The notes below the pieces were generated by a model, which was not told the origin of the DNA, did not search any database, and saw only the letters and a program-made list of their open reading frames with translations. Below are positions 10,934-60,577 of a DNA stretch of 64,000 nt, in pieces; positions within the stretch are counted from its first letter, which is position 1; each line of letters begins with the position of its first letter. Source of the DNA: Candidatus Latescibacterota bacterium (GTDB lineage Bacteria > Latescibacterota > UBA2968 > SICM01); NCBI GenBank assembly GCA_965217865.1, contig CBDCJO010000002.1, positions 288,001-352,000 of the forward strand. The letters are read 5' to 3'. Made by a program: the position numbers and the translations under genes.

Positions 10934-12069
10934 TTCTGTTTCGTTCCGACGGGTATCGGACGGAAACGTCAAAGTCGATCGTTCGTCGTTAATTTCAGCA
11001 GGGGCTAGGAAGTGCCAGTTTTTGATCTTTTTTCATATCGCAAACGGCGGGCCGAGGGCGAAAGACCGGATGTATTCGTCTACGACACGCTTCCCCAGCC
11101 ACTCCGAGTGCAAATCGTCCGAATTATGCAAGATGCTATCGGCCGATTTCATGTCTATAATTCCCCGTTCGATGGCGCGATCGAGAACAATAAAGGCTGG
11201 CAAATTATCCACGATACGGTTGCCCGGGAGCATGGTGTATTCCGGTTAGCGGATGAAATAAAACTAGATGCTCGTTGCGCGTATTTTCTTCTCAACTGTG
11301 ATTCGGTGAAACGAGTGCTTGATCTTGTTGAATTCAGCTTTCGCTACGTCGATAAGATTGCCCGGATATTCAACGAACATGATCGCCAGAGAAAAGGGAT
11401 AGAGGTGACAGCAAGCGATGCAATTGCTGAGCTCAACGAGCGTTTCCGACGTGCTGGCGTGGGATATCAATTTGAGGAGGGAAAGATCTTTCGTGTCGAC
11501 TCAGAATTGATTCACTCCGAAGTGGTGCGGCCCGCGCTTCGACATCTCCACCAAAAGGGCTTTGAGGGGCCACGTGATGAATTCATCCGCGCGCACAAGC
11601 ATTACCGTGCTGGCGAAATGCAAGATGCAATCACGGATGCCAACAACGCGTTCGAAAGCACATTGAAGGCGATTTGCGATCAGAAAGGTTGGCGGTATCC
11701 AGAGGGTGCCCGTGCTTCGGATCTTCTCAAGCTAGTGCGCGCGAAGGATCTTTTGCCAGACTATCTGGACCGGTCGTTCGACCAGCTGATTGCTACACTT
11801 AAGTCGGGTCTTCCGGAAGTGAGGAACGAGGAGGGTGCTCATGGCCAAGGAGCAACACCGCGGAAGACACCCAATTATGTGGCGGCCTACGCGCTCCATT
11901 TGGCGGCCGCCAACATACTGTTTCTCGCTGAAGCGCATAAAGCGATGAAATAAATAAGGCATACCGTGATGTTTCGCTTCATCAGACGGCTGTTCGGGAA
12001 CGATGTCACCACGGCCGATAGCCGGGGCGGCGACGACACGGAGTTGGTCGTTCATCGATCGTCCCGCGC
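10934..12069 (+). repeat. Direct duplication, partner 29569-30720
   Basis: Near-identical; partner has 15-bp and 1-bp insertions. Confidence 0.95.
11012..11953 (+). CDS. STM4504/CBY_0614-like abortive-infection protein (AbiJ-type N-domain plus Abi_C/HEPN)
   Basis: FDLFSYRKRR...DVFVYD.LP..LRVQI; AFESTLKAIC; RNEEGAHGQG. Confidence 0.8.
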   Translation: MPVFDLFSYRKRRAEGERPDVFVYDTLPQPLRVQIVRIMQDAIGRFHVYNSPFDGAIENNKGWQIIHDTVAREHGVFRLADEIKLDARCAYFLLNCDSVKRVLDLVEFSFRYVDKIARIFNEHDRQRKGIEVTASDAIAELNERFRRAGVGYQFEEGKIFRVDSELIHSEVVRPALRHLHQKGFEGPRDEFIRAHKHYRAGEMQDAITDANNAFESTLKAICDQKGWRYPEGARASDLLKLVRAKDLLPDYLDRSFDQLIATLKSGLPEVRNEEGAHGQGATPRKTPNYVAAYALHLAAANILFLAEAHKAMK

Positions 12070-14407: not shown

Positions 14408-14537
14408 TTGGAACAAAATTCTCAGCTTAGCAAGAGACACACATTCATCAATCAGGACAGGACGATCTCGGTGAGGGACGTGAGATTGAAATCACTCAAC
14501 CCTTTTGGAGACAGAGATCGAATCTAAGAGGAATACC

Positions 14538-17129
14538 ATGGAGCAACCGAAGAACAAGAAAAAGCGTGAGGTTGAGAACTACATGCATACCGGCAAGGAG
14601 CGTCTAAACAACCCGCCCGTTGGCTTGGTCACGCCGGAGACGGACAAGGATGCGGGCAAGAAGACCTACGTTTATGATCCACACCTAGATCCGCAACTCG
14701 TCTGGGCCGGGAAGGCCGAGTACACCTCGTTCGATGTCCCCACCGTATCCCTGCATGTCCACGAGCGCATTGACCCGTGCGTCATCGTGCAGGTGGTGAG
14801 AAAGCGCAACGGAGCGGGGACGCAGATATCCATGTTCGCGGCTCCGGAAGAAAACCCGCCGATCCGCCAAGCCATTGAGTTCTACAAGCACAGGCACAAT
14901 TGGAAGAACCGCCTGATCGCGGGCGACAGCCTGCTGGTGATGAACAGCCTGCTTGAGAAGGAGGGCCTCGGTGGGCAGGTGCAGATGGTCTATATCGACC
15001 CACCCTACGGCATACGCTACGGCTCGAATTTCCAGCCCTTCGTCAATAAGCGCGACGTGACCGACGGCAGGGACGAGGACCTGACCCAGGAGCCGGAGAC
15101 GATCCGCGCCTTCCGCGATACATGGGAGCTCGGCATCCATTCCTACTTGGCCTATCTGCGGGATCGCTTGCTATTAGCGCGGGAGCTTCTTCACGAAAGT
15201 GGAAGCTGTTTCGTGCAGATCGGAGATGAAAACGTCCATCGTGTAGGCTTAGTGATGGACGATATATTCGGCGCGGAGAATCGGTTGGCGACCATCTCGT
15301 TCGCCACGACGAGTGGCAGTTCTACGTCTCACTTGCCACAGGTAGCAGATTATTTGCTGTGGTACGCCAAGGACAAAGATCAAGTGAAGTATAGGCAATT
15401 GTATGAACCGCTCACGCGGCGCGAGGTGATCGAGTCCTTCAGTTGGCACGTGATGATAGAATTACCCGACGGGCAATGCCGCAAGCCGACGCCCGAAGAA
15501 AGTTTCGACCCAGACAAGTATCTACCGAATGGCGCGCGCATCTACCGGCGTACAGGTCTGGATTCGCAAGGTGTTTCCATGACCGGCCGTTCAGAACCCT
15601 ATGAGTGGAACGGCCGCGTCTTTCGTTGCGGCAATGCTCGGCACTGGGCGATCTCCAGAGAAGGCATGGACCGACTCTCCGAACTGAACCGGTTGGAGGC
15701 GCTGGAGGGACAGGCCTCATTGATGTGGAAAAAATACGAGGACGAGGTGCCGGGTCGAAGAATTAACAACATTTGGCCGGCACAGATGTATCCGAGTGAC
15801 AAGCGCTATGTGGTCCAGACCTCCGCAAAGGCGATTCAGCGCTGTATCCTGATGACCACGGACCCAGGCGATCTGGTATTTGATCCCACTTGCGGGTCAG
15901 GCACCACGGCCCATGTCAGCGAGCAGTGGGGCCGAAGGTGGATCACTTGCGACACCTCCCGCGTGGCGACAGCCTTGGCCAAGCAACGCCTCATGACGGC
16001 GAATTTCGACTATTACGAACTGGCTCATCCGGATGAAGGGGTTGGGGCCGGTTTTCGTTACCACAGCGTCGCCACCGTATCGGCGAAGACACTCGGCTAC
16101 CGCGAGCCCCCCGCCGAAATCATGCTTTACGACCGTCCCAGGATCGACCGGGGCAAGGCTCGTGTCACCGGTCCTTTTACGGTCGAAGCGGTGCCCGCGC
16201 CTGCGGTTAAGCCTCTGGACGAAATTGAAGAGTCCGCAGCGCCCCCTGCGGACGCCTCCGTGTCGCGTGCGGGGCAAACCTTGCGTCAGGCTGATTGGCG
16301 GGACGAACTGTTCAAAACGGGCATCCGCGGCAAGGCCGGGCAGCGTATCTCATTCGCTCGTCTGGAGCCGTTGCCTGGAACCCGGTGGTTGCATGCCGAG
16401 GGCGAGACCCGCCCTGACGAATCCATGGCTGAGGCGTCCCGCGAACCCGCGCACGATCCCGAGCGCCTCGTGGCCTCTTTCGGGCCGGACCACGCGCCGA
16501 TGGAACAGCGGCAAGTGGCTCTCGCCATCGAGGAGGCACAAAGCCTCGTCCCCAAGCCGAAGGTCATCGTCTTTGCGGCTTTCCAGTTCGACCCCGAGGC
16601 GTCCAAGGACATCGACGAGACCAATTGGCCCGGCGTCACTTTGTTGAAGGCGCAGATGAACGCCGATTTGCTGACCGACGATCTCAAGAAGGAGCGCGCG
16701 AACAACGAGAGCTTCTGGCTGATCGGCCAGCCGGACGTGGAGGCCGAGCGAATCACGGAAGGTGGTGACAAAGGCAAGCTCCGCGTCTCGGTCCGGGGTT
16801 TTGACTATTACAACACCAAGACCGGCAACGTGGAATCGGGCGGTAGGGACAGGATAGCCATGTGGATGCTCGACACCGACTATGACGGGCGCAGCCTGTT
16901 TCCCCGCCAAGTGTTCTTTCCCATGGTCGGCGACAAGGATGGCTGGGCCAAGCTCGCACACAATCTCAAAGCTGAGATCGACACGGACCTGATCGAAGCC
17001 TATCGCGGCGTCGTCTCCCTGCCATTTGAGCTTGGCAAGCACGGACGAGCGGCGGTCAAGATCGTGGACGATCGCGGCATCGAGAGCCTGAAAGTGGTCG
17101 AGGTGGATGGCGCATGCGACAGGAGTTGA
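14538..17129 (+). CDS. mod: Type III R-M adenine methyltransferase (Mod subunit)
   Basis: NRLIAGDSLLVM, YIDPPYG, FDPTCGSGTT, AVKIVDDRGIESLKV; Res remnant downstream. Confidence 0.88.
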   Translation: MEQPKNKKKREVENYMHTGKERLNNPPVGLVTPETDKDAGKKTYVYDPHLDPQLVWAGKAEYTSFDVPTVSLHVHERIDPCVIVQVVRKRNGAGTQISMFAAPEENPPIRQAIEFYKHRHNWKNRLIAGDSLLVMNSLLEKEGLGGQVQMVYIDPPYGIRYGSNFQPFVNKRDVTDGRDEDLTQEPETIRAFRDTWELGIHSYLAYLRDRLLLARELLHESGSCFVQIGDENVHRVGLVMDDIFGAENRLATISFATTSGSSTSHLPQVADYLLWYAKDKDQVKYRQLYEPLTRREVIESFSWHVMIELPDGQCRKPTPEESFDPDKYLPNGARIYRRTGLDSQGVSMTGRSEPYEWNGRVFRCGNARHWAISREGMDRLSELNRLEALEGQASLMWKKYEDEVPGRRINNIWPAQMYPSDKRYVVQTSAKAIQRCILMTTDPGDLVFDPTCGSGTTAHVSEQWGRRWITCDTSRVATALAKQRLMTANFDYYELAHPDEGVGAGFRYHSVATVSAKTLGYREPPAEIMLYDRPRIDRGKARVTGPFTVEAVPAPAVKPLDEIEESAAPPADASVSRAGQTLRQADWRDELFKTGIRGKAGQRISFARLEPLPGTRWLHAEGETRPDESMAEASREPAHDPERLVASFGPDHAPMEQRQVALAIEEAQSLVPKPKVIVFAAFQFDPEASKDIDETNWPGVTLLKAQMNADLLTDDLKKERANNESFWLIGQPDVEAERITEGGDKGKLRVSVRGFDYYNTKTGNVESGGRDRIAMWMLDTDYDGRSLFPRQVFFPMVGDKDGWAKLAHNLKAEIDTDLIEAYRGVVSLPFELGKHGRAAVKIVDDRGIESLKVVEVDGACDRS

Positions 17130-17443
17130 GCCGGATGCTTGGCCGGGAGGTGGATCTGATCGAACCCAGCGCCATCGAACGGAACCGCAACTACATTCGC
17201 CGCGTCGCCTGCACCAGAACGCTATTCTCAAAGCCATCGAGATCATCGGCGAGGCCACGGCCCGTATCGGCTGGGACAGACAGATGCGCCCCGGTATTTC
17301 ATGGCCGAAATCATCGGAATGCGGAATCGTCTCGTACATGCCCATTTCGAGGTGGACCTGAAGCGTGTATGGAAGACCGCACAACAGAATATCCCCCGTC
17401 TCATCTCCCTCATCGAACGCTGGTACCGCCGGAGGCTGTATGA
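17114..17443 (+). pseudogene. Degraded MNT/HepT (DUF86) toxin-antitoxin pair
   Basis: LSRMLGREVDLI (MNT C-terminus); IEIIGEA and GMRNRLVHAHFEVD (RxxxxH) in different frames. Confidence 0.75.
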
Positions 17444-17735
17444 TGGACCGGACAACTATTGACCGCCTGTCTTCGACCTTATTCCTCTGTCAACCGGATT
17501 CGGCCGGGGGATCACGAAGCGACTGGTTGGGGCACGAACTCAGAGTTCGATAGCCATCGGTTTTTCTTCTGCCAACTGGGGGCCGCCGAGACGCTGATCT
17601 GGCTCGTCGAGGCGCCAGCGGCCGATAAAGTTGGCGTGGAGTTTCCGTCCGATGGCGGAGCGTTCCAGCGTTTATGCACGAAGATGGCGACCGGCTCGGT
17701 GAAGACCGTCGTCATGGCCATGTTCATCGCATGGC
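17440..17735 (+). pseudogene. res: Type III restriction subunit (Res) N-terminal remnant
   Basis: FFFCQLGAAETLIWL...RLCTKMATGSVKTVVMAMFIAW, degenerate Walker A; remainder absent. Confidence 0.75.
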
Positions 17736-18284
17736 GCACCTGGAAGGGCTGCTGGCAGGGTTGAAGTTGTTCCGGTAGAGTTCTCGATTCATTGCCTTGC
17801 CTCCAATGGCCCTGCCATGTCGGCCTGACCGGGCTTCGACGCGGGCCGAGACCGACGCCTTGCTGGCCCAGTCCGCCTCAGAAAGATTGACAGATCCGGA
17901 CGACATGCCCGATCCGCCCCACGGCGTCGGCTATGAGCCGGCTTGGCGCACTAGGCACTTTCCGGAAAACCCGACGCACCGGTGAGATCCTCTGTTTGCA
18001 CACTGGCGAACCGAGTCAGCGGCTGGGCGATAATGCCAGACACCGTCATCAGGAACACTGGGTAGTGTCTCAGTTTAAAAAGCTTAAAATATGTATATGG
18101 CGATCGTTGATCGCATCGCTCTAAGGAAGGAGTAAACATTTCGAAGGGCCGAATGGAGAGCGCCGGCAAGCCAGTGTAATAGGCTACGCCGTGACGGTGG
18201 CTCGTGTCGCCATCGGCGAAATCGAGGAAACAAGCTACAAGTAGACCGCTAAGGTCAAGAGTGGCAGGACCGGGGTGATGGCAG

Positions 18285-18390
18285 GACACGGCCTGGAAAA
18301 TGATGATGCAGATTCGCAAGGCAATGAAGGAGGCCGATCAACACGAACTTCTGACGGGCGTGATTGAGATAGACGAGCATCTTGTGGGCC
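18285..18390 (+). mobile_element. IS1595-family transposase fragment
   Basis: TAWKMMMQIRKAM...LTGVIEIDE. Confidence 0.6.
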
Positions 18391-18479
18391 TTATTGACTG
18401 TCTTAAGGCGATTCAGACGGACGCCCTTCAGCCCCCTGCTGATCACCAAAGCGAACACGTAAGATAACGTGAGAAAGCG

Positions 18480-20801
18480 ATGAACAACAAAACACGACTC
18501 CTCGGCCCGCTCTTGACCGATCCTGACAAGCTCAAGAGACAAGCCGCCAAGTGTCGGGATGTCTTTGGCCAAGTTTCCGTAGCAAAATCGGATGTAGAAG
18601 CCTATCTCAAAGATGGCTGGGAAGTCGACAAGGAGCTTAAGCACAAGACGCATCTCAAACGAAGACGTGCGGCTGACGAGTTGCTGGAGAATCGCGTCTG
18701 GCTGCTTCTGTTTCTCTTGGGCTACCATGAACTCAATGATGGACGCAAGTTTTCTATCCTTGTCGAGCGTAAAGGTGCAGATCCAATCCGAAAGCAAATC
18801 GACGTCTTCGCAAAGGACGAGGAAACGGTGATTGTGGCTGAATGCAAAGCATCAGAAAAGTTGAAATGTAGGAGCTTGCAGAAGGATATTAAGGAACTCG
18901 CAAACCTGAAGGGCCCTCTTGCGAATGCCATAAAGAAACACTACGGTTCTAGTTTCAAGCCGAAAATCATATGGCTCTTTGTGACTCAGAACATAATCTG
19001 GTCCAAGCTGGACAAAGAACGTGCTGCAGGGGAAAAAATCCGCACGATCACAGAGAAAGAGCTTCCCTACTACAGCCAAATCGCTAATCATCTGCGCATG
19101 GCTGCCCGGTTCCAGTTCTTGGCAGAGTTTCTGAAGGATCAGAAGATCCCAGAACTCGCGAATCGGAAAGTCCCAGCGATCCGCGGCAAGCTCGGCGGTC
19201 ATACCTTCCATTGTTTTGTCACAACGCCAAAGGAGTTATTAAAAATTTCTTTTATTAACCATCGGTCCCTGAATGACCCAGACGGCGCACCTACTTATCA
19301 GCGACTCGTCACCCGTTTCCGAATGAAACAGATCAAACTGTTCTTGCTCGACGGGGGATTCTTTCCAACGAACATCCTCATTAACTTCACGAGACAGGTC
19401 CGCTTCGAGACTGTTTCCAAAGATGACAAGGCAGACGTTGCGTACGGGTACCTCTACATGCCCGATCGATACAGATCTGCGTGGGTCATCGACGGACAGC
19501 ACCGCCTCTATGGATTCGCCCTACTCAATGAGAAGCATCTCAGCCAAAACATCGTCGTCATTGCTTTTCATAGACTGAGCAAGGAACATGAAGCGAATCT
19601 CTTTGTGACAATCAACCATGAACAGAAATCTGTTCCAAAGAGTTTGTTGGACGACTTGGAAGGTGAACTGAAATGGGACTCCGATGTCCCCTCAGAACGC
19701 GTGGGAGCGATCAGCGCCCGTTTGATTGGCGGCCTCAATGCAGATATAAACGGGCCCCTCTATGAACGCGTAACACAGCAAGGCATAATAGCAACCGAGA
19801 AAACCTGCCTCACGGTCCCCGCGCTCAAAGATGGATTGCGGCGGTCTGGGCTCGTCGGCAAGTCCATACTGAAACGTAAGGAATACGAGCCCGGGGCGTT
19901 GTGTGGAACAACAGATTCAGAAACTCTTGACCGGGCTAGAGCAGCGTTGAATCAGTATTTCTCCCTCATACGATCCAGTTCTCCGACGCAATGGGAAATG
20001 GGGACAAGCGGGTTCTTTTGCTCCAACGTCGCGCTCCAAGCATATCTGCAGCTCTTGGCTGCCCTCGTGGCTTACATGGAGACGAACAAAGGCCTGAACG
20101 CACAAGAGTTGACACCGGAAGAGATCCTCTCGAATGTAGAGGAGTACTTGGACCCAATCCTCAAATGGCTATCTGATGCAACGCCCGTTGACATAGAAAA
20201 AACATTTAAGGTCCAGTTTGGGTCTGGTGGTCCTCGAGAGTACTTCTTTAGATTGTGCCGAATCATCAAGGCGGAGTTTTCTGATTTCGAGCCAGAAGGC
20301 ATGGGCGCGTGGGAACAAGAACAGTCGACAGAGCGCATCGAAATGGCAGATCGAAAGTTGAAGGAACTCAACATCCTTGTACAAAAGTCTATATTTGGCC
20401 AGTTCAAGGCGAAATATGGCACCGAAAAAAACGCATATTGGGAGAAAGGGGTTACCGACAGGAAGATTAAAATGCGTGCATATGAGAAGTCCCAAGATGA
20501 CGACATGGAAAAACGACTTCCTCTTGAGAATTACCTCAACTTCATTGAGTATAAGAATATCGTGGACAATAAGACTCATTGGCGCCTTTTCAAGCCCGTC
20601 TTCGACATTCCGGAACCTGGAGAAAAGGGATACTCCAAGAACGTGCGCTGGATGGAGAGGGTCAACAAACTACGGAGGATTCAAGCGCATCCTACTGAAA
20701 GCCGACGTTATAGGCTTGATGACTTTGAGTATATCGACTATATATACGAGCAATTCACCACCAAGCGGCAGGAGGCCGTTTCCACCGGGGAATTGGAGTG
20801 A
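18480..20801 (+). CDS. DGQHR (DndB/ParB-like) protein with N-terminal PD-(D/E)xK nuclease-like and C-terminal HEPN-like domains
   Basis: QIDVFAKD..VIVAECK; YQRL, FFPTNILIN, VIDGQHRLYG, LFVTINHEQKSV; NKLRRIQAHP. Confidence 0.85.
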   Translation: MNNKTRLLGPLLTDPDKLKRQAAKCRDVFGQVSVAKSDVEAYLKDGWEVDKELKHKTHLKRRRAADELLENRVWLLLFLLGYHELNDGRKFSILVERKGADPIRKQIDVFAKDEETVIVAECKASEKLKCRSLQKDIKELANLKGPLANAIKKHYGSSFKPKIIWLFVTQNIIWSKLDKERAAGEKIRTITEKELPYYSQIANHLRMAARFQFLAEFLKDQKIPELANRKVPAIRGKLGGHTFHCFVTTPKELLKISFINHRSLNDPDGAPTYQRLVTRFRMKQIKLFLLDGGFFPTNILINFTRQVRFETVSKDDKADVAYGYLYMPDRYRSAWVIDGQHRLYGFALLNEKHLSQNIVVIAFHRLSKEHEANLFVTINHEQKSVPKSLLDDLEGELKWDSDVPSERVGAISARLIGGLNADINGPLYERVTQQGIIATEKTCLTVPALKDGLRRSGLVGKSILKRKEYEPGALCGTTDSETLDRARAALNQYFSLIRSSSPTQWEMGTSGFFCSNVALQAYLQLLAALVAYMETNKGLNAQELTPEEILSNVEEYLDPILKWLSDATPVDIEKTFKVQFGSGGPREYFFRLCRIIKAEFSDFEPEGMGAWEQEQSTERIEMADRKLKELNILVQKSIFGQFKAKYGTEKNAYWEKGVTDRKIKMRAYEKSQDDDMEKRLPLENYLNFIEYKNIVDNKTHWRLFKPVFDIPEPGEKGYSKNVRWMERVNKLRRIQAHPTESRRYRLDDFEYIDYIYEQFTTKRQEAVSTGELE

Positions 20802-21637
20802 ACACATTCTCAGAGACATCTGTTAAGCCGTTTCTAAAGTGGGCTGGCGGTAAAAGATGGTTTGTTGCCAATCACTCCCGTATCCTTACCGCGTCATATC
20901 GGCGGTACTTTGAGCCCTTCGTTGGGAGCGGAGCCGTCTTTTTCCACCTCCGACCGCTGAGAGCTGTATTGGCAGATAGCAATGCAGCGTTGATCAACAC
21001 CTATCAGGCTATCCGTAGCGACTGGCGAAGTGTCTGGAAGAAACTGCGCAACCATCAGAGACAACATTGTGTTGCCTATTATTACCACGTACGTAGTTCT
21101 CAACCGATATCGCCAGCGGGTATGGCTGCGCGTTTTATCTACTTGAATAGGACCTGTTTCAACGGGCTATACCGAGTCAATCGGAATGGTGAATTCAACG
21201 TTCCAAAGGGTACTAAGAAAACCGTCGTCTTTCCGGATGACAACTTCCGTGCTGTGGCTATGGCGTTGCGCAACTGCGAACTTCGTGTGGCAGATTTTGA
21301 GGAAGTACTCGACAGGGCACAGAACGGAGACTTCGTTTACATAGATCCACCGTACACGGTGCGCCATAACAACAATAATTTCTTGAGGTACAACGAGAGT
21401 ATCTTTCGTTGGGAGGATCAGGTCCGGCTGGCTAAAGCCATGTATAGAGCCAATCGACGTGGCGCACTGATAGTCATGAGTAATGCCAACGCCAGTTGCA
21501 TTCGAGAACTCTATCGCGAGTTTGGTGTCATGTTGGAAGTATCACGGTGCAGTGTACTGGCAGCGGATTCGACGAAGCGCAGGAATACTACAGAGTTGAT
21601 CGTGACAAACATGAAGGAAGTGGGAATTGAGAGATAG
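20798..21637 (+). CDS. dam: Dam-family (D12 class) N6-adenine DNA methyltransferase
   Basis: FLKWAGGK, FEPFVGSGAV, YLNRTCFNGLYRVN..GEFNVP, YIDPPY; GTGA overlap with DGQHR gene. Confidence 0.9.
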   Translation: MNTFSETSVKPFLKWAGGKRWFVANHSRILTASYRRYFEPFVGSGAVFFHLRPLRAVLADSNAALINTYQAIRSDWRSVWKKLRNHQRQHCVAYYYHVRSSQPISPAGMAARFIYLNRTCFNGLYRVNRNGEFNVPKGTKKTVVFPDDNFRAVAMALRNCELRVADFEEVLDRAQNGDFVYIDPPYTVRHNNNNFLRYNESIFRWEDQVRLAKAMYRANRRGALIVMSNANASCIRELYREFGVMLEVSRCSVLAADSTKRRNTTELIVTNMKEVGIER

Positions 21638-21708
21638 GATTTCGGGGAAAGAAGGAAAAAGCAAACCAACCAGTCCAACTGACCGTCAAGTGCCAGGCGG
21701 TCCCCCGT

Positions 21709-21935
21709 GGGAGGGTGTAAATTTCTTTGTGTAAATGGCCATAATCTCCCAGAATTCCTAATAGTATGGAACCCATCAACAAAGGAGGAGATATGGCAAA
21801 ACCAGAAGAAGAGCGTGACCAGCTGCTCAATGAGTTGGTAGACGAGTTTGTCGAAGACTGCAAGAGTGCTGAAGATCTACTGTGGTGAAAACGGGATCGT
21901 CAAGCAGTTGATGAAACGGGTGTTGGAGCAGAAAT
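21709..21935 (+). mobile_element. IS256-family left-end remnant
   Basis: IR-like GGGAGGGTGTAAATTTCTTTGTGTAA; GGAGG RBS; LVDEFVEDCKSAEDLL/GENGIVKQLMKRVLE. Confidence 0.7.
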
Positions 21936-22056
21936 TATGGAATCCAGCCCCCCCTTGGCCCGGAATCGGCCGCTGAGGCACGGAATCCGGCCCGTGTGCG
22001 ACTTTAATTCGGAATCCGGGCAACGGATGCGACCTCCACAAAAAAAGCGACCGTGG
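21931..22056 (+). repeat. Short non-coding module with GGAATC repeats; inverted copy 55126-55252, diverged copy ~38770-38850
   Basis: Direct sequence comparison. Confidence 0.85.
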
Positions 22057-24190: not shown

Positions 24191-24709
24191 ATGGAATGGA
24201 AAAGTGTTTTTCGGAACCCGCTTTGCGCCTTGTCGGTGCTGGCTATGTTCGCAGGTTTACTGGTCGATTTTCAGGGGGCGGCGTCTAAAATGGCACGAGC
24301 TATTCCCCTAATAGAAGCCTTACTGCCATTGATAGCCCTTGGGGGGGTTACGTTCTTTGGGTTGTGGTCAATATGGGCGGTTCCATCATTCTTCTGGGCG
24401 CGTCGCCCTGCTGCCAAGTTTGGAACAAATTACTATTTCATAGTGAAATGCCGCAATGCCGTTGAAGGTCGCATTATCGGCATATTGGACAACAATTCTC
24501 ACTTGTATGCCGGAATGACGGAACTTTCCAATACGTTGAGTCGATTCCGAATCCAATGTCCCAATATAAATCCTGACGATAAATATTACGCAGTAGTATG
24601 GTTCAACTTTCTTGCACAATTAGCGCCATTGGCACGGCACGATGATTTGTACAATGCACGCAAACTTGGATTACGGGGAAATGAATCACATGACCGAACC
24701 CAACTTTAA
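24191..24709 (+). CDS. Hypothetical 2-TM membrane protein (IS passenger)
   Basis: Two N-terminal hydrophobic helices; lower GC; overlaps methylase start. Confidence 0.6.
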   Translation: MEWKSVFRNPLCALSVLAMFAGLLVDFQGAASKMARAIPLIEALLPLIALGGVTFFGLWSIWAVPSFFWARRPAAKFGTNYYFIVKCRNAVEGRIIGILDNNSHLYAGMTELSNTLSRFRIQCPNINPDDKYYAVVWFNFLAQLAPLARHDDLYNARKLGLRGNESHDRTQL

Positions 24710-25859
24710 GAACCGCACGATATGGACGGGCGACAACCTGGACATCATGCGTGGCATGAACTCCGAAAGCGTTGATCTGATCTACCTTGATCCGCCCTTC
24801 AACTCCAATCGCACCTACTCCGCGCCCGTAGGAAGCAAGGCGGCGGGGGCTGCCTTCAAGGATTCATGGTCGTTATCCGATTTGGATGTTGCCTGGATGG
24901 GGATCATTGCCGACAAACATCCGGGCATGTATAAGGTTCTGGAAGCGTCTGGCGTCGCTCACGGAAAAGGGATGCAATCCTATCTTTGCATGATGGGTGT
25001 CCGAATCCTTGAAATGCATCGTCTCTTGAAGCCTGCGGGGAGCATCTATCTTCATTGCGATCCCACGGCCAGTCACTACCTCAAGCTGCTTATGGACGCG
25101 GTATTCGGGCAGGAAAATTTTCGGAGTGAGATCACGTGGCGCCGTACCAATGCGAAAGGATTGGCGTTCAAGAGCTACCCGAACAACGCTGACTTTCTGT
25201 TGTACTACAGCAAAGCCGAATCTTTTACGTGGAATCGTCCATTTCGCTCCCATGATCCGACCTATTTAAAAAAATTTTACCGACATGTTGATCCAAAAAC
25301 CGGACGGCGCTATCTACTCGACAATCTGGCGAACCCGAACTCGGATCGCCCTAATTTGACATACGAGTTTCTCGGAGTAACCAGAGTTTGGCGTTGGACA
25401 CGAAAACGAATGCAGAAAGCCTACGAACAGGGTCTCGTTGTGCAGCAACGTCCGGGTGCAGTTCCAAGACTCAAAAGGTATTTGGATGAGATGAAAGGCG
25501 CCCCGGTTGATACGATTTGGGACGATGTAAAGCCAGTACAGGCTCAATCCGGGGAGCGCATCGGCTATCCCACCCAGAAGCCCCTTGTCCTCCTGAACAG
25601 GATCATCCAGGCAAGCAGCGACATCAACGATATGGTCATGGACCCATTCTGCGGATGCGCAACGACCTGCGTGTCGGCGGACAAGCTGAACCGCCAATGG
25701 GTCGGAATAGACATCTCGCATAAAGCTTCCGAGCTTGTCAACATGAGACTTCAATCGGAATTGGGAGACCTTTATCATTCCCGCCTGGTTGCGGTCCGAA
25801 CCGACGTTGTATCTATTCTGAGATAACAAGAGAAAAGCAGATAAAGGTCCAAGCAAGAT

Positions 25860-26891
25860 TCAGGCAGCCTTGTGGATGGTCTGGGATGTTCTTTGCCGAT
25901 TGATTTCTATGCGGCGCTGCCGAGCCTCCTCCTTTCGACCTTGTCGGTGGTGAAGAATCTTTTGATGCTGGCCTTTATGCCTCTGAAGAGGCGTGACATA
26001 CTGTATTGCCCCGTGATAGCGTTCGGCGTTGTAGCTGTGAATGAAGGAATCAATCAGGCCTTCCAGTTGATGGAATGTGAAGATGTCCTGGAAGCGCAGC
26101 CAGTCGTATTTGAATGTCCGGAAAAAGGCTTCGATCCAGGCGTTGTCCGTGGGTGTTTGATATCGGGCAAACAGCTGCGAGATGCCCAGGTCCTTGAAGA
26201 ATTGGGCCATCGATTTGGCCTTCATCTGAGATCCGTGATCTGAGAGGGCTGTCAAGCTTATGGGCCCAGTGTCCAGGTCCAGCAGTCCTTCGTTGGCAAG
26301 GGCTTGATCCCAGGCCTGTTTGACCTGCTCCACGGTCGCGTTGAAGGAGAGCTTCCATCCTACGATCTTCCTGGAATACACGTCGAGAATGGCGGTAAAA
26401 TACAGGAACAAACCGAAAAATGGGATGTAGGTCAGGTCCCAGCTCCAGACCTGATTAGGACCTTCAGGTTTGACCTGGGGCTTGCTCTGCTTGACCGGCG
26501 TCCTCACCTGTTTCCTGCGTGCCAGACGTTCTTTCCTGGCCTGTCGGTAGAAGCTGGAGGCCGAGGCCTGCACTACCCCCTTCTCTGAGGCTACCACCGC
26601 CAGCTGATGGGGAGGCAGATCGGCATAGGTCTCATCCCTTAAGAGGGCCGGGATTTGCTCTTTCTCCTCCCTCAGCAATCCGTGTGGGGCCTCATCAGGG
26701 GCGGGCCCGGGCTTCCCATCCAAAAGCGGGTCCGACACCCCATCCAGCTTCTCTTCTCGATCTCGCCGGCTCCAGGCACAATACCGCTGGAGGGGAAGCT
26801 GTAGGATCTCGCAAGAACGGGTGAGTTTCACCCCTTTCTCCTTGGCCCGATGGACCATTAAGAGGATCTCGCGTTTGACCTCAGCTTGCAC
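25860..26891 (-). CDS. IS3-family transposase OrfB
   Basis: WSWDLTY, SDHGSQM, PTDNAWIEAFFRTFK. Confidence 0.9.
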   Translation of the reverse strand: MQAEVKREILLMVHRAKEKGVKLTRSCEILQLPLQRYCAWSRRDREEKLDGVSDPLLDGKPGPAPDEAPHGLLREEKEQIPALLRDETYADLPPHQLAVVASEKGVVQASASSFYRQARKERLARRKQVRTPVKQSKPQVKPEGPNQVWSWDLTYIPFFGLFLYFTAILDVYSRKIVGWKLSFNATVEQVKQAWDQALANEGLLDLDTGPISLTALSDHGSQMKAKSMAQFFKDLGISQLFARYQTPTDNAWIEAFFRTFKYDWLRFQDIFTFHQLEGLIDSFIHSYNAERYHGAIQYVTPLQRHKGQHQKILHHRQGRKEEARQRRIEINRQRTSQTIHKAA

Positions 26892-26914
26892 CCGGTGGCC
26901 CTTGATCGGGCCTG

Positions 26915-27250
26915 TCAGATCCCATTCACACTTTTTTTTAGCAGGGAAAGTTCCACAGATTGCTCAATGATCGTTTGCTCCAGGCGTGCCCGCTCTTTGC
27001 GCAGCTGCTCCACCTCCTCAGCCGATACCATCGGCTTGCGGCTCCGGCGACCCTTGAACTCCTTGAGGGCCCCGGACTTGACCGACTCACGAATACGCTT
27101 TAGATCCGAGGAATGAATGCCCCATTTCCGCAGCACCTGTGCAATGGGAACATCTCCCCGGCTGGCTTCAAGGAAAATCTCATACTTCTGTTCCGGGGAC
27201 AAGCTCCTGCGCTTCTTGACCGGGTCACTGTTTGAGGACAGTTGCTCCAT
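26915..27250 (-). CDS. IS3-family transposase OrfA
   Basis: RRSLSPEQKYEI HTH plus coiled coil; AGGAGG RBS. Confidence 0.85.
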   Translation of the reverse strand: MEQLSSNSDPVKKRRSLSPEQKYEIFLEASRGDVPIAQVLRKWGIHSSDLKRIRESVKSGALKEFKGRRSRKPMVSAEEVEQLRKERARLEQTIIEQSVELSLLKKSVNGI

Positions 27251-27637
27251 CTTTACTCCTCCTGTGAGGTCAGGGATATCCCAAAATATGTATCCCTTCT
27301 CAACCCTACAGGCAACCAGGATCTTGCTTCGACCTTGCCCCCGTTTTTTCGGGCGATCTCAGACAAAAGATAACGTTCCAAAGCGCACTGACTTGGGCGA
27401 ACTTCCCGATTACCGAACGTACAAGCATATCCTGTTCGGCAAGCAGGAAGGAGTATGCGGTGGTTGTCGTTCAACGTTCCAGTTCAGGAACTTCACGGTG
27501 GATCATATCGTACCCAAAATCAAAGGAGGAACCAACCACCAAGACAACCTGCAACTGCTCTGCGGAGCCTGTAACAGCTTGAAAGGTGATAGGCCGCAAG
27601 CCTATCTGGTGGCGAGATTGAAAGGCTTGGCCACACC

Positions 27638-28531
27638 TTAGGCCGCCGTCAGGTTCCGGTACGTGATGTTGTCCGTGTTCATGATCCGGCGAAGCGTATC
27701 GTGGAACAGGCGAGGATTGTTACGATTGTTGAACCTCCATTCAAGCTCTTCAAGATAACGGTCCATATGCTTAGTGCTCATCTTGTGAAACGTCCCTACG
27801 ATGGAACGCTTGAACAGGGACCAGACGCCCTCGACGCTGTTGGTGTGCACGTCGCCGACAACCCATTGCTCTTCGGAATGCCTGACGGTTTCATGACGGG
27901 TGTCATGGTCCTCGACTCCGAGATAGGATTTCAACTCGTCCGTGTAAATGGCTTCCGCTTCGTCCTTGACGGTTCGCCGGATAAAGTCATGAAGCGTCTG
28001 GCGTCTGACGTTGGAGATGCGCTCGATTCGGATGTTTCCGCCCCTCTGGACGGCCCCTGCGATCCAGGTTTTGTTTCCCTTGTAGGCGCGCCCCTTGTTC
28101 TTTGTCCTGCCTCCTACAAGCGTTTCGTCCACTTCCACGACGCCGAGCAGCGTCGGCCCCTCAAACGGATCGTTGCCCATAGCCTTCCGGATTCTGTGGC
28201 AGAGATACCAGGCCGACCGGTAGGCGACGCCGAGCGTTCGTTGAAGTTGAAGCGCGGAGATGCCTTTTTTGGATTCGCACATCAGGTAGATCGCCAGGAA
28301 CCATTTGCGAAGCGGCAGATGAGAATCATGCATGATGGTCCCGGACATAACGCTGAACTGGTACTCGCATGACCGGCATTCCCACAGGTTGTAATCGTGA
28401 AGCTCGTTTACCCCCGTGTCTCCGCAGCGCGTGCAACATACGCCGTTCGGCCAGCGGATGCGCTCAAGGGCTTCCCTGCACTTCCCGTCATTGCCGAACC
28501 GGTCAATCAAGGAGATAATATTGACGTCCAT
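27638..28531 (-). CDS. IS1595-family transposase
   Basis: Zn ribbon CTRC/CRSC; VEVDET, IYTDE, HTNSVEGVWS, YLEELEWRFN. Confidence 0.95.
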   Translation of the reverse strand: MDVNIISLIDRFGNDGKCREALERIRWPNGVCCTRCGDTGVNELHDYNLWECRSCEYQFSVMSGTIMHDSHLPLRKWFLAIYLMCESKKGISALQLQRTLGVAYRSAWYLCHRIRKAMGNDPFEGPTLLGVVEVDETLVGGRTKNKGRAYKGNKTWIAGAVQRGGNIRIERISNVRRQTLHDFIRRTVKDEAEAIYTDELKSYLGVEDHDTRHETVRHSEEQWVVGDVHTNSVEGVWSLFKRSIVGTFHKMSTKHMDRYLEELEWRFNNRNNPRLFHDTLRRIMNTDNITYRNLTAA

Positions 28532-29646: not shown

Positions 29647-30603
29647 GTGCCAGTTTTTGATCTTTTTTCATATCGCAAACGGCGGGCCGAAGGCGAAAGA
29701 CCGGATGTATTCGTCTACGACACGCTTCCCGAGCCACTCCGAGTGCAAATCGTCCAAATCATGCAAGATGCTATCGGCCGATTTCATGTCTATAATTCCC
29801 TGTTCGATAATTCCCCGTTCGATGGCGCGATCGAGAACAATGTAGGCTGGCAATTTATCCACGATACGGTTGCCCGGGAGCATGGTGTATTCCGGTTAGC
29901 GGATGAAATAAAACTAGATGCTCGTTGCGCGTATTTTCTTCTCAACTGTGATTCGGTGAAACGAGTGCTTGATCTTGTTGAATTCAGCTTTCGCTACGTC
30001 GATAAGATTGCCCGGATATTCAACGAACATGATCGCCAGAGAAAAGGGATAGAGGTGACAGCAAGCGATGCAATTGCTGAGCTCAACGAGCGTTTCCGAC
30101 GTGCTGGCGTGGGATATCAATTTGAGGAGGGAAATATCTTTCGTGTCGACTCAGAATTGATTCACTCCGAAGTGGTGCGGCCCGCGCTTCGACATCTCCA
30201 CCAAAAGGGCTTTGAGGGGCCACGTGATGAATTCATCCGCGCGCACAAGCATTACCGTGCTGGCGAAATGCAAGATGCAATCACGGATGCCAACAACGCG
30301 TTCGAAAGCACATTGAAGGCGATTTGCGATCAGAAAGGTTGGCGGTATCCAGAGGGTGCCCGTGCTTCGGATCTTCTCAAGCTAGTGCGCGCGAAGGATC
30401 TTTTGCCAGACTATCTGGACCGGTCGTTCGACCAGCTGATTGCTACACTTAAGTCGGGTCTTCCGGAAGTGAGGAACGAGGAGGGTGCTCATGGCCAAGG
30501 AGCAACACCGCGGAAGACACCCAATTATGTGGCGGCCTACGCGCTCCATTTGGCGGCCGCCAACATACTGTTTCTCGCTGAAGCGCATAAAGCGATGAAA
30601 TAA
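29647..30603 (+). CDS. STM4504/CBY_0614-like abortive-infection protein, copy 2
   Basis: Near-identical to 11012-11953 with a 5-aa insertion. Confidence 0.8.
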   Translation: MPVFDLFSYRKRRAEGERPDVFVYDTLPEPLRVQIVQIMQDAIGRFHVYNSLFDNSPFDGAIENNVGWQFIHDTVAREHGVFRLADEIKLDARCAYFLLNCDSVKRVLDLVEFSFRYVDKIARIFNEHDRQRKGIEVTASDAIAELNERFRRAGVGYQFEEGNIFRVDSELIHSEVVRPALRHLHQKGFEGPRDEFIRAHKHYRAGEMQDAITDANNAFESTLKAICDQKGWRYPEGARASDLLKLVRAKDLLPDYLDRSFDQLIATLKSGLPEVRNEEGAHGQGATPRKTPNYVAAYALHLAAANILFLAEAHKAMK

Positions 30604-57845: not shown

Positions 57846-57919
57846 GTTTTCACAGGTCAGGTCACCGTGAATAATACCACATGCGCAGACACATGCGCCA
57901 AATCCACGGGAAGTTCAAA

Positions 57920-60577
57920 ATGAAACGTCTGGTTCCCATTTCATTTGCATTTCTGTTCATGGCACTCACGTCCGACGCTTTCGCCAGGCGCTCGGGCCTG
58001 ATGGTGGTTGAGAAGATCGTCGCCTTCGAGATCCGGGTCGTCTCCTTACCCCCTTCTCCAGATTTCAGCGGAAACGGCGTGGTCGGGCTTGAGGATTTCT
58101 TCGCGTTCGCGGAGGTTTACGGTTCCGTCGACGGCGATGGGATCTACCAAGCCAAGTTCGACCTGAGCCGGAACGGGAGTATCGGGTTCGAGGATTTCTT
58201 CATTTTCGCCGAGTCCTTTGGAATGGAAGTTGGTACATCATCGCCGCCACCGGACCCGCCAGCCGGATTGGCGCCGGCGGATCAGGCAGCGTTCGACAGT
58301 CTGGCTGTCGGGAAGCAGATAGTGGCCCAAGGTTCGGACGATAGGCTGGTCTTTCTTTCTCCCGGCCGCATCCGGGAGCTTTTCCAAGGTGAGTCCTACG
58401 ACGGCGACTATCAGTATGAAAATACCGGTGAAAATACGGGGACCCTCACGTACACCTATGACGTGACAGGCAACAACCCCAACGTCGAAAAGTCGGTGCT
58501 CGAGCTTACGTTCACTTCAATGACCGCGGGCACGTTCGTCTATACCTATACCGAGAGCGGGTCGGTCGTCGTGTCGCCGTCTGAGGAGACCATCGCTCTG
58601 GGCAACACGCTTCAGCTGACGGCGGAGGCATTCGACGAGAGCGGGCACGCGGTGGCGGAGGTCGAGTTCTCCTGGGAGTCCAGTGACGCTGCGGTGGCCA
58701 CGGTGGACGCGTCGGGTCTGGTGACAGGAGTCGCCGTGGGAACGGCCACGATCACGGCGAGTGCAGGCAGCGGACAGGGGACAGCGGAGATCACCGTCAT
58801 GGACCTGGAACGGGCAGCGCTGGTTGCGCTGTACGAAGCGACGGATGGGCCGAACTGGGTCAACAGCAACAACTGGCTGACGGACGCGCCGCTCGGGGAC
58901 TGGTACGGGGTGGATGTGGATGGGCGGGGCCGGGTTGTCCGGCTGGATCTCAGCGGCAGGGTGGATGAGGCGGGAAGGTCTGTCAGTCATGGCCTGTCGG
59001 GTCCGATCCCAGGCGAACTCGCTGACCTCGCCGGCCTGACGGAGCTGTGGCTCCACGACAACGAACTGTCGGGCCCGATCCCGGGCGAACTCGGGAACCT
59101 GGCCCGCCTGGAAAGTCTGCGTCTCACCTTCAACGACCTTTCGGGCCCGATCCCGAGCGAACTCGGTAGCCTGGCCCGCCTGGAGAGGCTGGAGATCGGC
59201 TTCAACGAACTTTCGGGCCCGATCCCGGGCGAGCTTGGCAACTTGTCCAGCTTGTGGCGGCTAGCACTCTACGAGAACGACCTGACCGGCCCGATTCCGC
59301 CCGAACTCGCCAACCTCCTAAGCCTGACGCAGCTGTGGCTCCGGGACAACGACCTCACGGGCCCAATTCCGCCCGAACTCGCCAACCTCATTGGCCTCAC
59401 GCAGCTGGATCTCTCCAGCAATGACCTGACGGGTCCGATCCCGCATAGTTTCCTGCAACTTGACAGGCTTCGTCAGTTTTTCATTGGGGGAAACGGAAGT
59501 CTCTGCGTACCAGGGACTTCTTCTTTCGTGGCGTGGCTGCAAGGAATTGAGAATGCCTCCGGGCCTTATTGCAACGAGGCGGACGCGGCGGCGCTGGAAA
59601 CCCTGTACAACGCCTCCGGCGGAGCAGACTGGACGAATTCCAGCAGATGGCTCGAGACTCCCGCTCTCGACGAATGGTACGGCGTGACGGCGGACGCCCT
59701 CGGCCGGGTCGTGTCACTCGACCTGAGCCGCAACGGACTCGCGGGACGGCTTCCGGGCAGCCTGGGCGAACTGGCTCACATGACCGAGCTAAGGATCGCT
59801 GGCAACACTGGCCTTTCCGGCCGCCTTCCGTTGTCGCTGGCCGGCCTCTCCCTCCGGGCGCTTCACTACGCCGGGACGGAGCTGTGTGCCCCGGTCGACA
59901 CGTCCTTCCAAGCCTGGCTGAACGCCATTCCGTCGCATGAGGGCACCGGGGCCGAGTGCGCCCCGCCTTCCGACCGGGACATCCTGGTGGCGCTCTACGA
60001 AGCGACCGGCGGACCTTACTGGGTCAACAGCAGCAACTGGCTCACGAAAGCGCCGCTGCAGGATTGGCACGGCGTGGCCGTTGACGGTGAAGGTCGCGTG
60101 TCGCATCTCTCGCTCAGGGGAAACGGTCTACGGGGGCCGATACCACGCGAACTCGGCAGCCTCACCAGCCTGACGGTGCTGAGCCTTACGAGAAACCAAC
60201 TCTCCGGCCCCATCCCCCCGGAACTCGGCAACCTGGCCAGCCTGACAACTCTGGAACTAGGCGGTAACGCCCTCGAAGGCCCCATCCCACCTGAACTGGG
60301 CAACCTCGCCAGCCTGACGCACCTTTACCTCTGGGAGAATGAGCTCTCAGGCCGGATCCCCGGCGAACTGGGCCTAACCAGTCTGAGGCAGATTCTCCTC
60401 CCGAAAAACAAGCTCTCAGGCCCGATCCCACCCGAACTCGGCAACCTGTCCAGCCTTTCGGAACTGGTCCTTAACGAGAACCGCCTGACCGGTCCGATCC
60501 CACCCGAGCTCGGCAACCTCACCCGCCCGCGGAAGGCTGGGTCGGTATCAGGGAAGTCGCTGCCCACCTGCAGGTAG
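57920..60577 (+). CDS. Secreted leucine-rich-repeat protein with EF-hand/dockerin-like and Big_2 domains, probably 3'-truncated
   Basis: Signal peptide; PDFSGNGVVGLEDF; WESSDAAVATVD; three ALY.A..G..W caps; many LSGPIPxELGNL 24-aa repeats. Confidence 0.88.
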   Translation: MKRLVPISFAFLFMALTSDAFARRSGLMVVEKIVAFEIRVVSLPPSPDFSGNGVVGLEDFFAFAEVYGSVDGDGIYQAKFDLSRNGSIGFEDFFIFAESFGMEVGTSSPPPDPPAGLAPADQAAFDSLAVGKQIVAQGSDDRLVFLSPGRIRELFQGESYDGDYQYENTGENTGTLTYTYDVTGNNPNVEKSVLELTFTSMTAGTFVYTYTESGSVVVSPSEETIALGNTLQLTAEAFDESGHAVAEVEFSWESSDAAVATVDASGLVTGVAVGTATITASAGSGQGTAEITVMDLERAALVALYEATDGPNWVNSNNWLTDAPLGDWYGVDVDGRGRVVRLDLSGRVDEAGRSVSHGLSGPIPGELADLAGLTELWLHDNELSGPIPGELGNLARLESLRLTFNDLSGPIPSELGSLARLERLEIGFNELSGPIPGELGNLSSLWRLALYENDLTGPIPPELANLLSLTQLWLRDNDLTGPIPPELANLIGLTQLDLSSNDLTGPIPHSFLQLDRLRQFFIGGNGSLCVPGTSSFVAWLQGIENASGPYCNEADAAALETLYNASGGADWTNSSRWLETPALDEWYGVTADALGRVVSLDLSRNGLAGRLPGSLGELAHMTELRIAGNTGLSGRLPLSLAGLSLRALHYAGTELCAPVDTSFQAWLNAIPSHEGTGAECAPPSDRDILVALYEATGGPYWVNSSNWLTKAPLQDWHGVAVDGEGRVSHLSLRGNGLRGPIPRELGSLTSLTVLSLTRNQLSGPIPPELGNLASLTTLELGGNALEGPIPPELGNLASLTHLYLWENELSGRIPGELGLTSLRQILLPKNKLSGPIPPELGNLSSLSELVLNENRLTGPIPPELGNLTRPRKAGSVSGKSLPTCR

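Follow-up and report, generated by a model that had tools for sequence, protein, structure and literature searches.

A Dam-like methyltransferase subfamily tied to DGQHR-domain proteins with differing effectors: a candidate methylation-surveillance defence cassette in a Latescibacterota genome

Positions 18480 to 21637 of a 64,000-nucleotide stretch from a Candidatus Latescibacterota bacterium (assembly GCA_965217865.1, contig CBDCJO010000002.1; the whole stretch is hereafter called the window) hold two intact genes, which encode a 773-aa nuclease-DGQHR-HEPN protein and an adenine methyltransferase of a distinct Dam-like subfamily. What is new here is a reverse survey showing that this methylase subfamily is tied to DGQHR cores with differing effectors. 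The DGQHR core likely senses DNA methylation and would switch on interchangeable anti-phage effectors. We read the pair, with a confidence a little short of even, as a methylation-surveillance defence cassette, in which the core would read N6-methyladenine (m6A) and, on DNA without that mark, activate the DNase and the HEPN RNase fused to it. The features of the pair, all on the forward strand, are as follows.

18480..20801, +: 773-aa nuclease-DGQHR-helical-HEPN protein (sensor-effector, "type A"), from the open reading frame, an AlphaFold2 model and profile matches
18486..19145, +: N-terminal PD-(D/E)xK nuclease domain, residues ~3-222, with E70, D108, E121 and K123, from fold matches and conservation
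19161..19664, +: DGQHR / ParB-Srx fold domain binding nucleoside triphosphate (NTP), residues ~228-395, with YQR at 273-275, DGQHR at 338-342 (19491-19505) and FxxIN at 375-379
19665..20315, +: helical domain after the ParB core, residues ~396-612, common to nuclease-less DGQHR relatives
20316..20774, +: C-terminal HEPN domain, residues ~613-765, with E683 and R732xxxxH737, from fold matches and conservation
20798..20801, +: GTGA overlap of the stop and start codons of the two genes, from the sequence
20798..21637, +: 279-aa D12/Dam-family adenine methyltransferase of a distinct subfamily (GGKRW, DPPYTVxHN), from profile matches (DpnM, E 2e-56)
18288..18389, +: IS1595-family transposase remnant, ~90 bp upstream of the start codon of the 773-aa gene (46% over 35 aa, E 2e-4, against the window's own IS1595 transposase)

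The original prediction, made from the letters of this DNA, had described two intact genes overlapping by GTGA, and both frames and the overlap are found as described. We infer that translation of the 773-aa protein and the methylase is coupled through this overlap; in relatives the frames mostly abut or overlap too. An assembly artefact was ruled out, as a single contig of an independent run covers positions 17600-21977 with 0 differences.

To define what the methylase subfamily travels with, viral contigs were scanned with the methylase alignment, and 80 of the 455 confirmed loci were analysed, 47 with the subfamily and 33 with an ordinary Dam. A DGQHR gene lay within 4 kb in 38 of the 47 proviral subfamily loci, against 0 of the 33 ordinary Dam loci (one has a DGQQR gene). 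Six of the 38 are of type A, as in the window; 26 are of type B, with a DGQHR protein of ~385 aa and a small partner, and six are of type C, with a ~500-aa DGQHR protein and a ~440-aa partner. The type B proteins align to residues 217-592 of the 773-aa protein (hhalign, 99.9%) and those of type C to residues 220-591 (99.7%). Since the alignments are limited to these residues, the three types have, at the level of sequence, the ParB and helical domains in common, and type B is too short for either a nuclease or a HEPN domain besides. Residues P426, R430, T445, W505, G581 and G584 of the helical domain are kept in both types B and C. A simple hydropathy scan found two to five hydrophobic stretches in all 27 small partners of type B examined; none of the 20 scanned matched a Pfam family above the cut-off, and the type C partner matches no named family. 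A predicted writer of a DNA mark and a ParB-helical module are constant across the types, and the effector varies. Because the same methylase subfamily occurs in proviruses mostly with DGQHR cores that lack both nuclease and HEPN domains, it is seemingly this core that couples to the methylase, with the nuclease and HEPN domains as apparently exchangeable effectors. The retention of one subfamily with such different partners, in which an ordinary Dam takes its place at a single locus (L041; L numbers denote surveyed loci), points to a specific mark on DNA.

The association extends beyond the proviral loci. The two best plasmid groups are of type B (Roseateles) and type C (Zymomonas), both with a DGQHR gene, and among 401 genomes of one class, the five carriers comprise four of type A and one with a HerA gene. 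No subfamily methylase was found among annotated phages at E<=1e-60. Methylase identity is 49% within type A, 49-50% between type A and types B or C, and 36% to ordinary Dams. At least 15 changes of partner type are needed on the methylase tree, and 31 when the labels are shuffled; on this tree, the cassettes are thus partly inherited together and partly reshuffled. Six loci have one methylase with both A and B around it. In two methylase loci, the methylase comes after a baseplate-hub gene.

In the reciprocal direction, relatives of the 773-aa protein were collected: 2240 of 8000 scored candidates belong to the family, which forms 502 clusters at E<=1e-30, and the 120 best matches are 59-75% identical. 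The neighbours of full-length relatives were followed at 88 loci (1 genome, 80 metagenome, 7 viral), which include the near-duplicates L023/24, L049/50, L079/80 and L086/87. A Dam-like gene is present at 64 of the 88 loci, nearly always abutting. At the other 24, the locus is cut by a contig end (10), an MT-A70 methylase (five), a larger D12 methylase (three) or a radical-SAM enzyme (three) is found instead, or nothing was seen (three). Linkage to a methylase is thus conserved, with 11 further loci bearing another methylase or a radical-SAM enzyme, and a survey of this kind was the check that the original prediction had named. No dnd genes lie beside the 88 relatives. A FastTree phylogeny of 69 full-length proteins, rooted at the midpoint and weak at several deep nodes, has the MT-A70 partner arising twice, the larger D12 methylase once and the radical-SAM enzyme at least twice. 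The larger D12 methylase has no relative in the Protein Data Bank (PDB). The radical-SAM type also accounts for two plasmid relatives (32% identity) and for the only other carrier genome of the host phylum; the plasmid loci have, in addition, another DGQHR gene and the gene of an ATP-binding protein. In all six radical-SAM-linked proteins, K123 is replaced by T or R. Full-length relatives were absent from annotated phages, two DNA queries found no match in E. coli genomes (a DNA-level, insensitive search), and a scan of genome contigs with the single protein returned one locus only.

In deep-branching loci (L081:4992-9018, L078, L088, L106, L107, L109), a radical-SAM gene takes the place of the methylase and is joined by another DGQHR gene and a GHKL ATPase. 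At L079:4977-11080, the relative is split in two, the second part being 1227 aa long, with the larger D12 methylase after it and an EcoRII-like gene before it.

The anatomy of the 773-aa protein was defined from an AlphaFold2 model built with 148 sequences (mean predicted local-distance difference test score, pLDDT, 93.9; predicted template-modelling score, pTM, 0.86), and residue conservation was counted in 147 relatives of 25-75% identity. The three domains announced by the original prediction are borne out by the model and by fold matches for each, and its D...ExK, DGQHR and C-terminal RxxxxH motifs are present and conserved across the relatives. In the nuclease domain, E70 is kept in 127 of the 147 sequences, D108 in 142, E121 in 130 and K123 in 114; both the fold and the conserved D108/E121/K123 are those of PD-(D/E)xK enzymes. 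Its best fold match is AF1548 (Z 11.8, root-mean-square deviation (rmsd) 2.2, 113 residues aligned), followed by Can2 (Z 9.4, rmsd 8.2, 150 aligned), VC1899 (Z 9.3, 4.8, 167) and Card1 (Z 9.0, 4.5, 148); the restriction enzymes BspD6I, BstEII and FokI match at lower Z (7.6-6.7). The sole Foldseek match under E 0.001 is Cdn1 (E 4.4e-4), and a weak Pfam match to Card1_endonuc (E 0.065) was obtained. The modelled fold therefore appears nearest to the ligand-activated Card1/Can2 nucleases and not to a site-specific restriction enzyme, a modest preference. With these CRISPR ancillary nucleases, Card1, Can2 and Cdn1, the protein has in common the fold of its nuclease half (residues ~3-223) at 13-17% identity; they carry a CARF ligand domain, whereas here a ParB core occupies the regulatory position.

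The central domain belongs to the TIGR03187 DGQHR family (136.6 bits, curated cut-off 58.85). DGQHR at 338-342 is found in 147 of 147 relatives, and the QR and FxxxN motifs are likewise invariant. Its closest folds are PadC (Z 8.5, rmsd 3.0, 100 aligned), KorB (Z 7.1) and sulfiredoxin (Z 6.1), with SspE (Z 4.3, rmsd 4.2, 115 aligned) and BrxU (Z 3.7) behind; a DUF262 Pfam match was not obtained. The helical domain, folded together with the ParB core, gave no clear fold match, which does not in itself make it a new fold. At the C-terminus, R732 is kept in 128 and H737 in 124 of the 147 relatives, and the domain matches AbiF (Z 8.7, rmsd 3.5, 134 aligned) and many further HEPN chains over residues 616-770. 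Helical fold, RxxxxH motif and upstream acidic residue together place it in the HEPN superfamily as a predicted RNase, although the 773-aa protein has no Pfam HEPN match. The C-terminus of one relative matches the PADLOC model PDC-M34B. With PADLOC, the 773-aa protein itself matches only through its DpdB core, and neither the protein nor the 148-sequence profile had a meaningful match among PDB sequences.

The methylase scores 243 bits with the TIGR00571 dam model (cut-off 114.85), and its FxGxG and DPPY motifs are kept in columns that are invariant in 95 sequences. Its best PADLOC models are type II methylases, which are general methylase matches. Ninety-seven sequences with DPPYT(V/T)xHN and two without the exact motif form one clade apart from ordinary Dams (support 0.997; FastTree). 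From this tree and from that of the 69 proteins, duplicate loci (11 and 12 ids) and partial proteins were excluded. W21, K140, H190, N191, N193, N199, R250 and S252 are fixed differences of this clade from ordinary Dams. The fold and the equivalents of the EcoDam base contacts (PMC4417163) are shared with GATC methylases of EcoDam and DpnII-type restriction-modification (R-M) systems, and no DpnII-like nuclease is present here. In the alignment to EcoDam, R124, L122, P134 and N120 correspond to R126, L124, P136 and N122, all kept, and K9 to K14, mostly kept (88 of 97); Y138, the EcoDam contact with the first base pair, has K140 as its counterpart in 93 of the 97 members. Because the residues that read the TC end are kept and Y138 is replaced by K, we infer that the target is Dam-related and not necessarily GATC, probably not plain GATC. 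The label "Dam" should therefore not be taken to mean a GATC reader in a subfamily whose first-base-pair residues differ throughout. GATC is not avoided in the genome (observed/expected 0.98, a weak test as the cassette is patchy and probably recent), and GATC and palindrome counts of the genome pointed to no target. No variable target-recognition region stands out. Of the carriers checked, five of five had no second full Dam, in a sample not centred on Dam-positive enterobacteria. A published methylome of Zymomonas does not cover the plasmid that bears the subfamily methylase.

How might such a pair work? The methylase would mark host DNA with m6A. The DGQHR/ParB core would dimerise on NTP and encircle DNA; a marked site would stimulate NTP hydrolysis and release the core. 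On unmarked phage or plasmid DNA, the core would stay engaged, licensing the Card1/Can2-like nuclease to nick or degrade DNA and joining two HEPN halves for RNA cleavage and growth arrest. In the nuclease-less relatives, the engaged state may be relayed to the small membrane protein or to the separate partner, with an abortive output. These steps are modelled on DndI, SspE and DpdB; the anatomy, the motifs, the linkage in both directions and the exchange of effectors and enzymes are what was observed here. The mark is reported to stimulate the ATPase of DndI for release from self DNA, and unmarked phage DNA is restricted (PMC11662687); mark recognition, GTP hydrolysis and nuclease are coupled in SspE (PMC13251355); and DpdB, a dimer whose ATPase is stimulated by DNA, has a tunnel for double-stranded DNA and is described as forming no complex with its modifying enzyme (PMC10164549). 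We put most weight on a DNA-reading clamp because the characterised relatives of the module act on DNA as NTP-driven dimers. The m6A self mark, nucleotide-gated nuclease and abortive HEPN domain of the original prediction remain close to this reading; its simple R-M pair, as it was put, is not supported, given the finding of the same methylase with nuclease-less DGQHR cores.

DndI (in IscS-DndBCDE-DndI) and SspE (in SspABCD-SspE) are the nearest precedents: a ParB-like NTPase with a DGQQR motif is fused to a nuclease, a separate enzyme marks self, and NTP hydrolysis gates the nuclease. They differ from the pair, whose core is of the DGQHR family (TIGR03187), in their mark (phosphorothioate, against predicted m6A) and in their nuclease (an HNH nickase, against PD-(D/E)xK and HEPN domains), and, unlike theirs, the effectors here are exchangeable for a membrane protein. 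The C-terminal HNH domain (DUF1524) of SspE, DndI and GmrSD was not found, the C-terminus being HEPN and the N-terminus PD-(D/E)xK.

Several observations weigh against a surveillance cassette of this kind. In 9 of the 47 methylase loci, no DGQHR gene is in view; three of these nine have HerA and NurA-like genes, one a nucleoside-phosphorylase fusion, one a phosphoesterase with an ORC-like ATPase, and four nothing (three at contig ends). In 13 of the 26 type B loci, the methylase is convergent, on the opposite strand, so co-regulation is not required; at these loci (L124, L125, L129, L131-L135, L137, L138, L141, L145, L155), the methylase comes after other genes on its own strand, and the membrane and DGQHR genes face it from the opposite one. 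SspE and BrxU resemble the protein only weakly and in the ParB core alone, and the methylase-class swaps within the family are hard to reconcile with the reading of one fixed sequence. Finally, the window's copy has an excess of private changes, 30 versus 11 (p 0.004) at columns conserved at >=70%, and 10 versus 4 (p 0.18) at >=90% columns.

This excess may reflect relaxed selection on the window's copy; early decay and a faster rate of the lineage are both possible. Of 309 highly conserved columns, the protein departs from 18, where the median is 8; this places it with the six highest of 121. Most of these 18 are not common to its closest relative, L002 (82% identity). All catalytic motifs are intact. 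Against L002, nonsynonymous and synonymous divergence (dN, dS) are 0.096 and 1.13 for the large gene and 0.16 and 1.30 for the methylase, and long-run selection on both coding sequences is, by this measure, purifying.

Three other explanations were weighed. The first, which we consider unlikely, follows Metis: the methylase would load the chromosome with m6A, and degradation by a phage would free N6-methyl-dAMP (m6dAMP), or a phosphorylated form of it, which would bind the ParB pocket and cause the DNase/HEPN effector or the membrane protein to abort infection. Metis (MisA/MisB, MisC/MisB and a proposed type III with its own methylase) also relies on adenine methylation and is reported to be abortive through an enzyme or a three-helix membrane effector. 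That one sensor is coupled here either to an enzyme or to a membrane effector recalls the division of Metis into types I and II, and the Metis preprint (bioRxiv 2025.11.05.686725) predicts that some systems bring a methylase of their own. The swapping of three unrelated adenine-methylase groups, which conserves the product and not obviously the sequence, would fit, as would a nuclease closest to the ligand-activated Card1/Can2/Cdn1 and the lack of an evident variable target-recognition region. Yet any Dam gives m6A, and a special subfamily is kept here, with ordinary Dams at 0 of 33. In Metis, m6dAMP is sensed by a PUA-like domain and a HAD phosphatase is the "cleaner"; the pair has neither, and membership of Metis was rejected, since no PUA-like, calcineurin-like or HAD Pfam domain occurs in the pair or in the flanking open reading frames scanned. 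Moreover, the ParB pocket is shaped for a triphosphate (PMC12065111), and a DNase would presumably be of little use once the genome has already been degraded.

The second is an NTP-dependent, otherwise conventional type II-like R-M pair, in which the 773-aa protein would recognise the methylase's site and cut it when unmethylated, with HEPN as a dimerisation module or backup. The adjacency typical of type II, a nuclease and methylase in a two-gene operon with predicted coupled translation, is seen here, the PD-(D/E)xK motif is intact, the methylase prefers type II PADLOC models, and the fold matches include BspD6I, FokI and BstEII. We nevertheless hold this improbable: it leaves unexplained why the same methylase clade mostly serves DGQHR proteins without a nuclease domain, the slow evolution of the family's best matches and the methylase-class swaps; the nuclease fold is nearest Card1/Can2, no PADLOC restriction-enzyme model matches the 773-aa protein, and GATC, in the weak test given above, is not avoided. 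Against the first of these objections, ParB folds are reported to be able to nick DNA on their own (PMC12839542).

More improbable still is a guard or addiction module, whose DGQHR core would aid or regulate the methylase and whose toxic domains would be freed on loss or inhibition of the methylase (by cassette loss, a phage S-adenosylmethionine lyase or anti-restriction proteins): the requirement of the DpdB ATPase for DNA modification (PMC10164549), DndB as a negative regulator (PMC10853773), the proviral DGQHR genes that also flank beta-class methylases (L089, L096), the patchy, mobile distribution and the survival of two intact frames among remnants speak for it, but a second, effector-less DGQHR gene in the radical-SAM loci and in six Dam loci would take the helper role, and a common interface with one methylase clade is improbable for DGQHR partners that resemble one another at only ~20%.

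Beyond the pair itself, the DGQHR core could be a general receptor for a self-installed mark or for a phage-released methylated nucleotide, and a widespread platform that drives a DNase-HEPN, membrane or separate partner, its radical-SAM versions reading another base modification; we regard this wider view as possible, with doubts.

The original prediction did not recognise the pair as a characterised system, and PADLOC and the literature searched gave no match to one. PD-lambda-5 likewise has two genes, a D12-class methylase and a partner, which is an ApeA-like HEPN protein; its methylase belongs to a different subfamily, its B model matches weakly (E 3e-8, far below general methylase models) and its A model not at all at E<=0.1, so membership was rejected. 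PD-lambda-5 is presented as a compact "RM+Abi" system, Abi standing for abortive infection (PMC9519451). The ParB-fold core is also that of DndB and DpdB, with matches to the Pfam DndB family (E 7e-12) and, over residues 230-537, to the DpdB model (E 3e-20); the pair differs from them by the extra nuclease and HEPN domains. As a DpdB, the protein reaches 72.3 bits against an equivalog cut-off of 300, and the genome has no dpdA match; as a DndB, it reaches 63 bits against 450 for the dnd-associated equivalog. Both memberships were rejected. The original prediction had found no dndACDE, ssp or dpd genes in the window, and Pfam scans of 15 and 56 window open reading frames indeed gave no Dnd, Ssp or Dpd family. 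Models of dndC, dndD and dpdA had no match in the 96%-complete genome, the dndD search being run without a positive control and ssp being searched only in the window. The genome is 6.4 Mb in size, and the 773-aa protein is its only DGQHR gene.

In the literature searched, which did not extend to REBASE, DefenseFinder, subscription journals or preprint supplements, neither this architecture nor a link between the methylase and DGQHR proteins was found described. DGQHR has been recognised as a ParB-family domain tied to many defence systems, and fusions to HNH, PD-(D/E)xK and HEPN domains have been noted in general, with no such system named (PMC3632139). If the surveillance reading is true, orphan "DGQHR domain-containing proteins" would gain a role outside phosphorothioate and deazaguanine systems, mark-gated ParB nucleases such as DndI and SspE would extend to base methylation, a Dam-like subfamily with its own target would be defined, and an R-M-type writer with abortive effectors, among them a membrane protein, would blur the boundary of R-M with Abi. 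The family is large, and its two-gene form lends itself to testing.

The pair is situated in a stretch rich in insertion sequences (IS), has a GC content of 49% against 55% for the genome, and belongs to a cassette present in 2 of 168 genomes of the host phylum; for these reasons it was likely acquired horizontally. Promoter and terminator scans at the locus gave results at chance level. The neighbours had been called nearly all broken, which is right for the immediate flanks, where remnants lie, and not for an 874-aa methylase and two AbiJ_NTD4/DUF7014 genes, which are long open frames. The 874-aa methylase is type III-like (14505-17129), and short frames then run to 17764. Two of the short stretches, at 17107-17361 and 17459-17764, we take, by eye and with no profile match, to be remnants of a small HEPN-type toxin gene and of a restriction subunit, respectively. 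The AbiJ_NTD4 / DUF7014 (HEPN-like) genes, at 11012-11953 and 29647-30603, are near-identical. Positions 24642-27641 hold an N6/N4 methylase and a C-terminal HNH piece with an IS3-family element (25860-27250) between them, apparently a methylase-HNH fusion split by insertion; this split arrangement recurs elsewhere in the genome at 100% identity, and six further related methylases (50-61%) are present. Ig-like (Big_2) and leucine-rich repeats occur in an 898-aa protein encoded at 57881-60574.

Other gene groups came to light around the methylases. An operon headed by a methylase of this subfamily, with a ~673-aa HerA (DUF87) ATPase and a ~445-aa NurA-like protein and no DGQHR gene, is found at L112:4001-8146, L143, L149 and L194 and looks like a separate unnamed cassette; at L003:7316-11448, the HerA-NurA operon and a DGQHR gene are both present. 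In two loci (L146:5065-6834, L037:7705-9474), a gene 3' of the methylase encodes a 590-aa protein whose C-terminal part is a nucleoside phosphorylase domain and whose N-terminal part has no assignment; the protein has no homology to the DGQHR family. Twelve loci (L089-L101, e.g., L096:5105-7897) carry a proviral trio of a beta-class N6/N4 methylase, a short DGQHR protein and a ~294-aa protein without a Pfam family.

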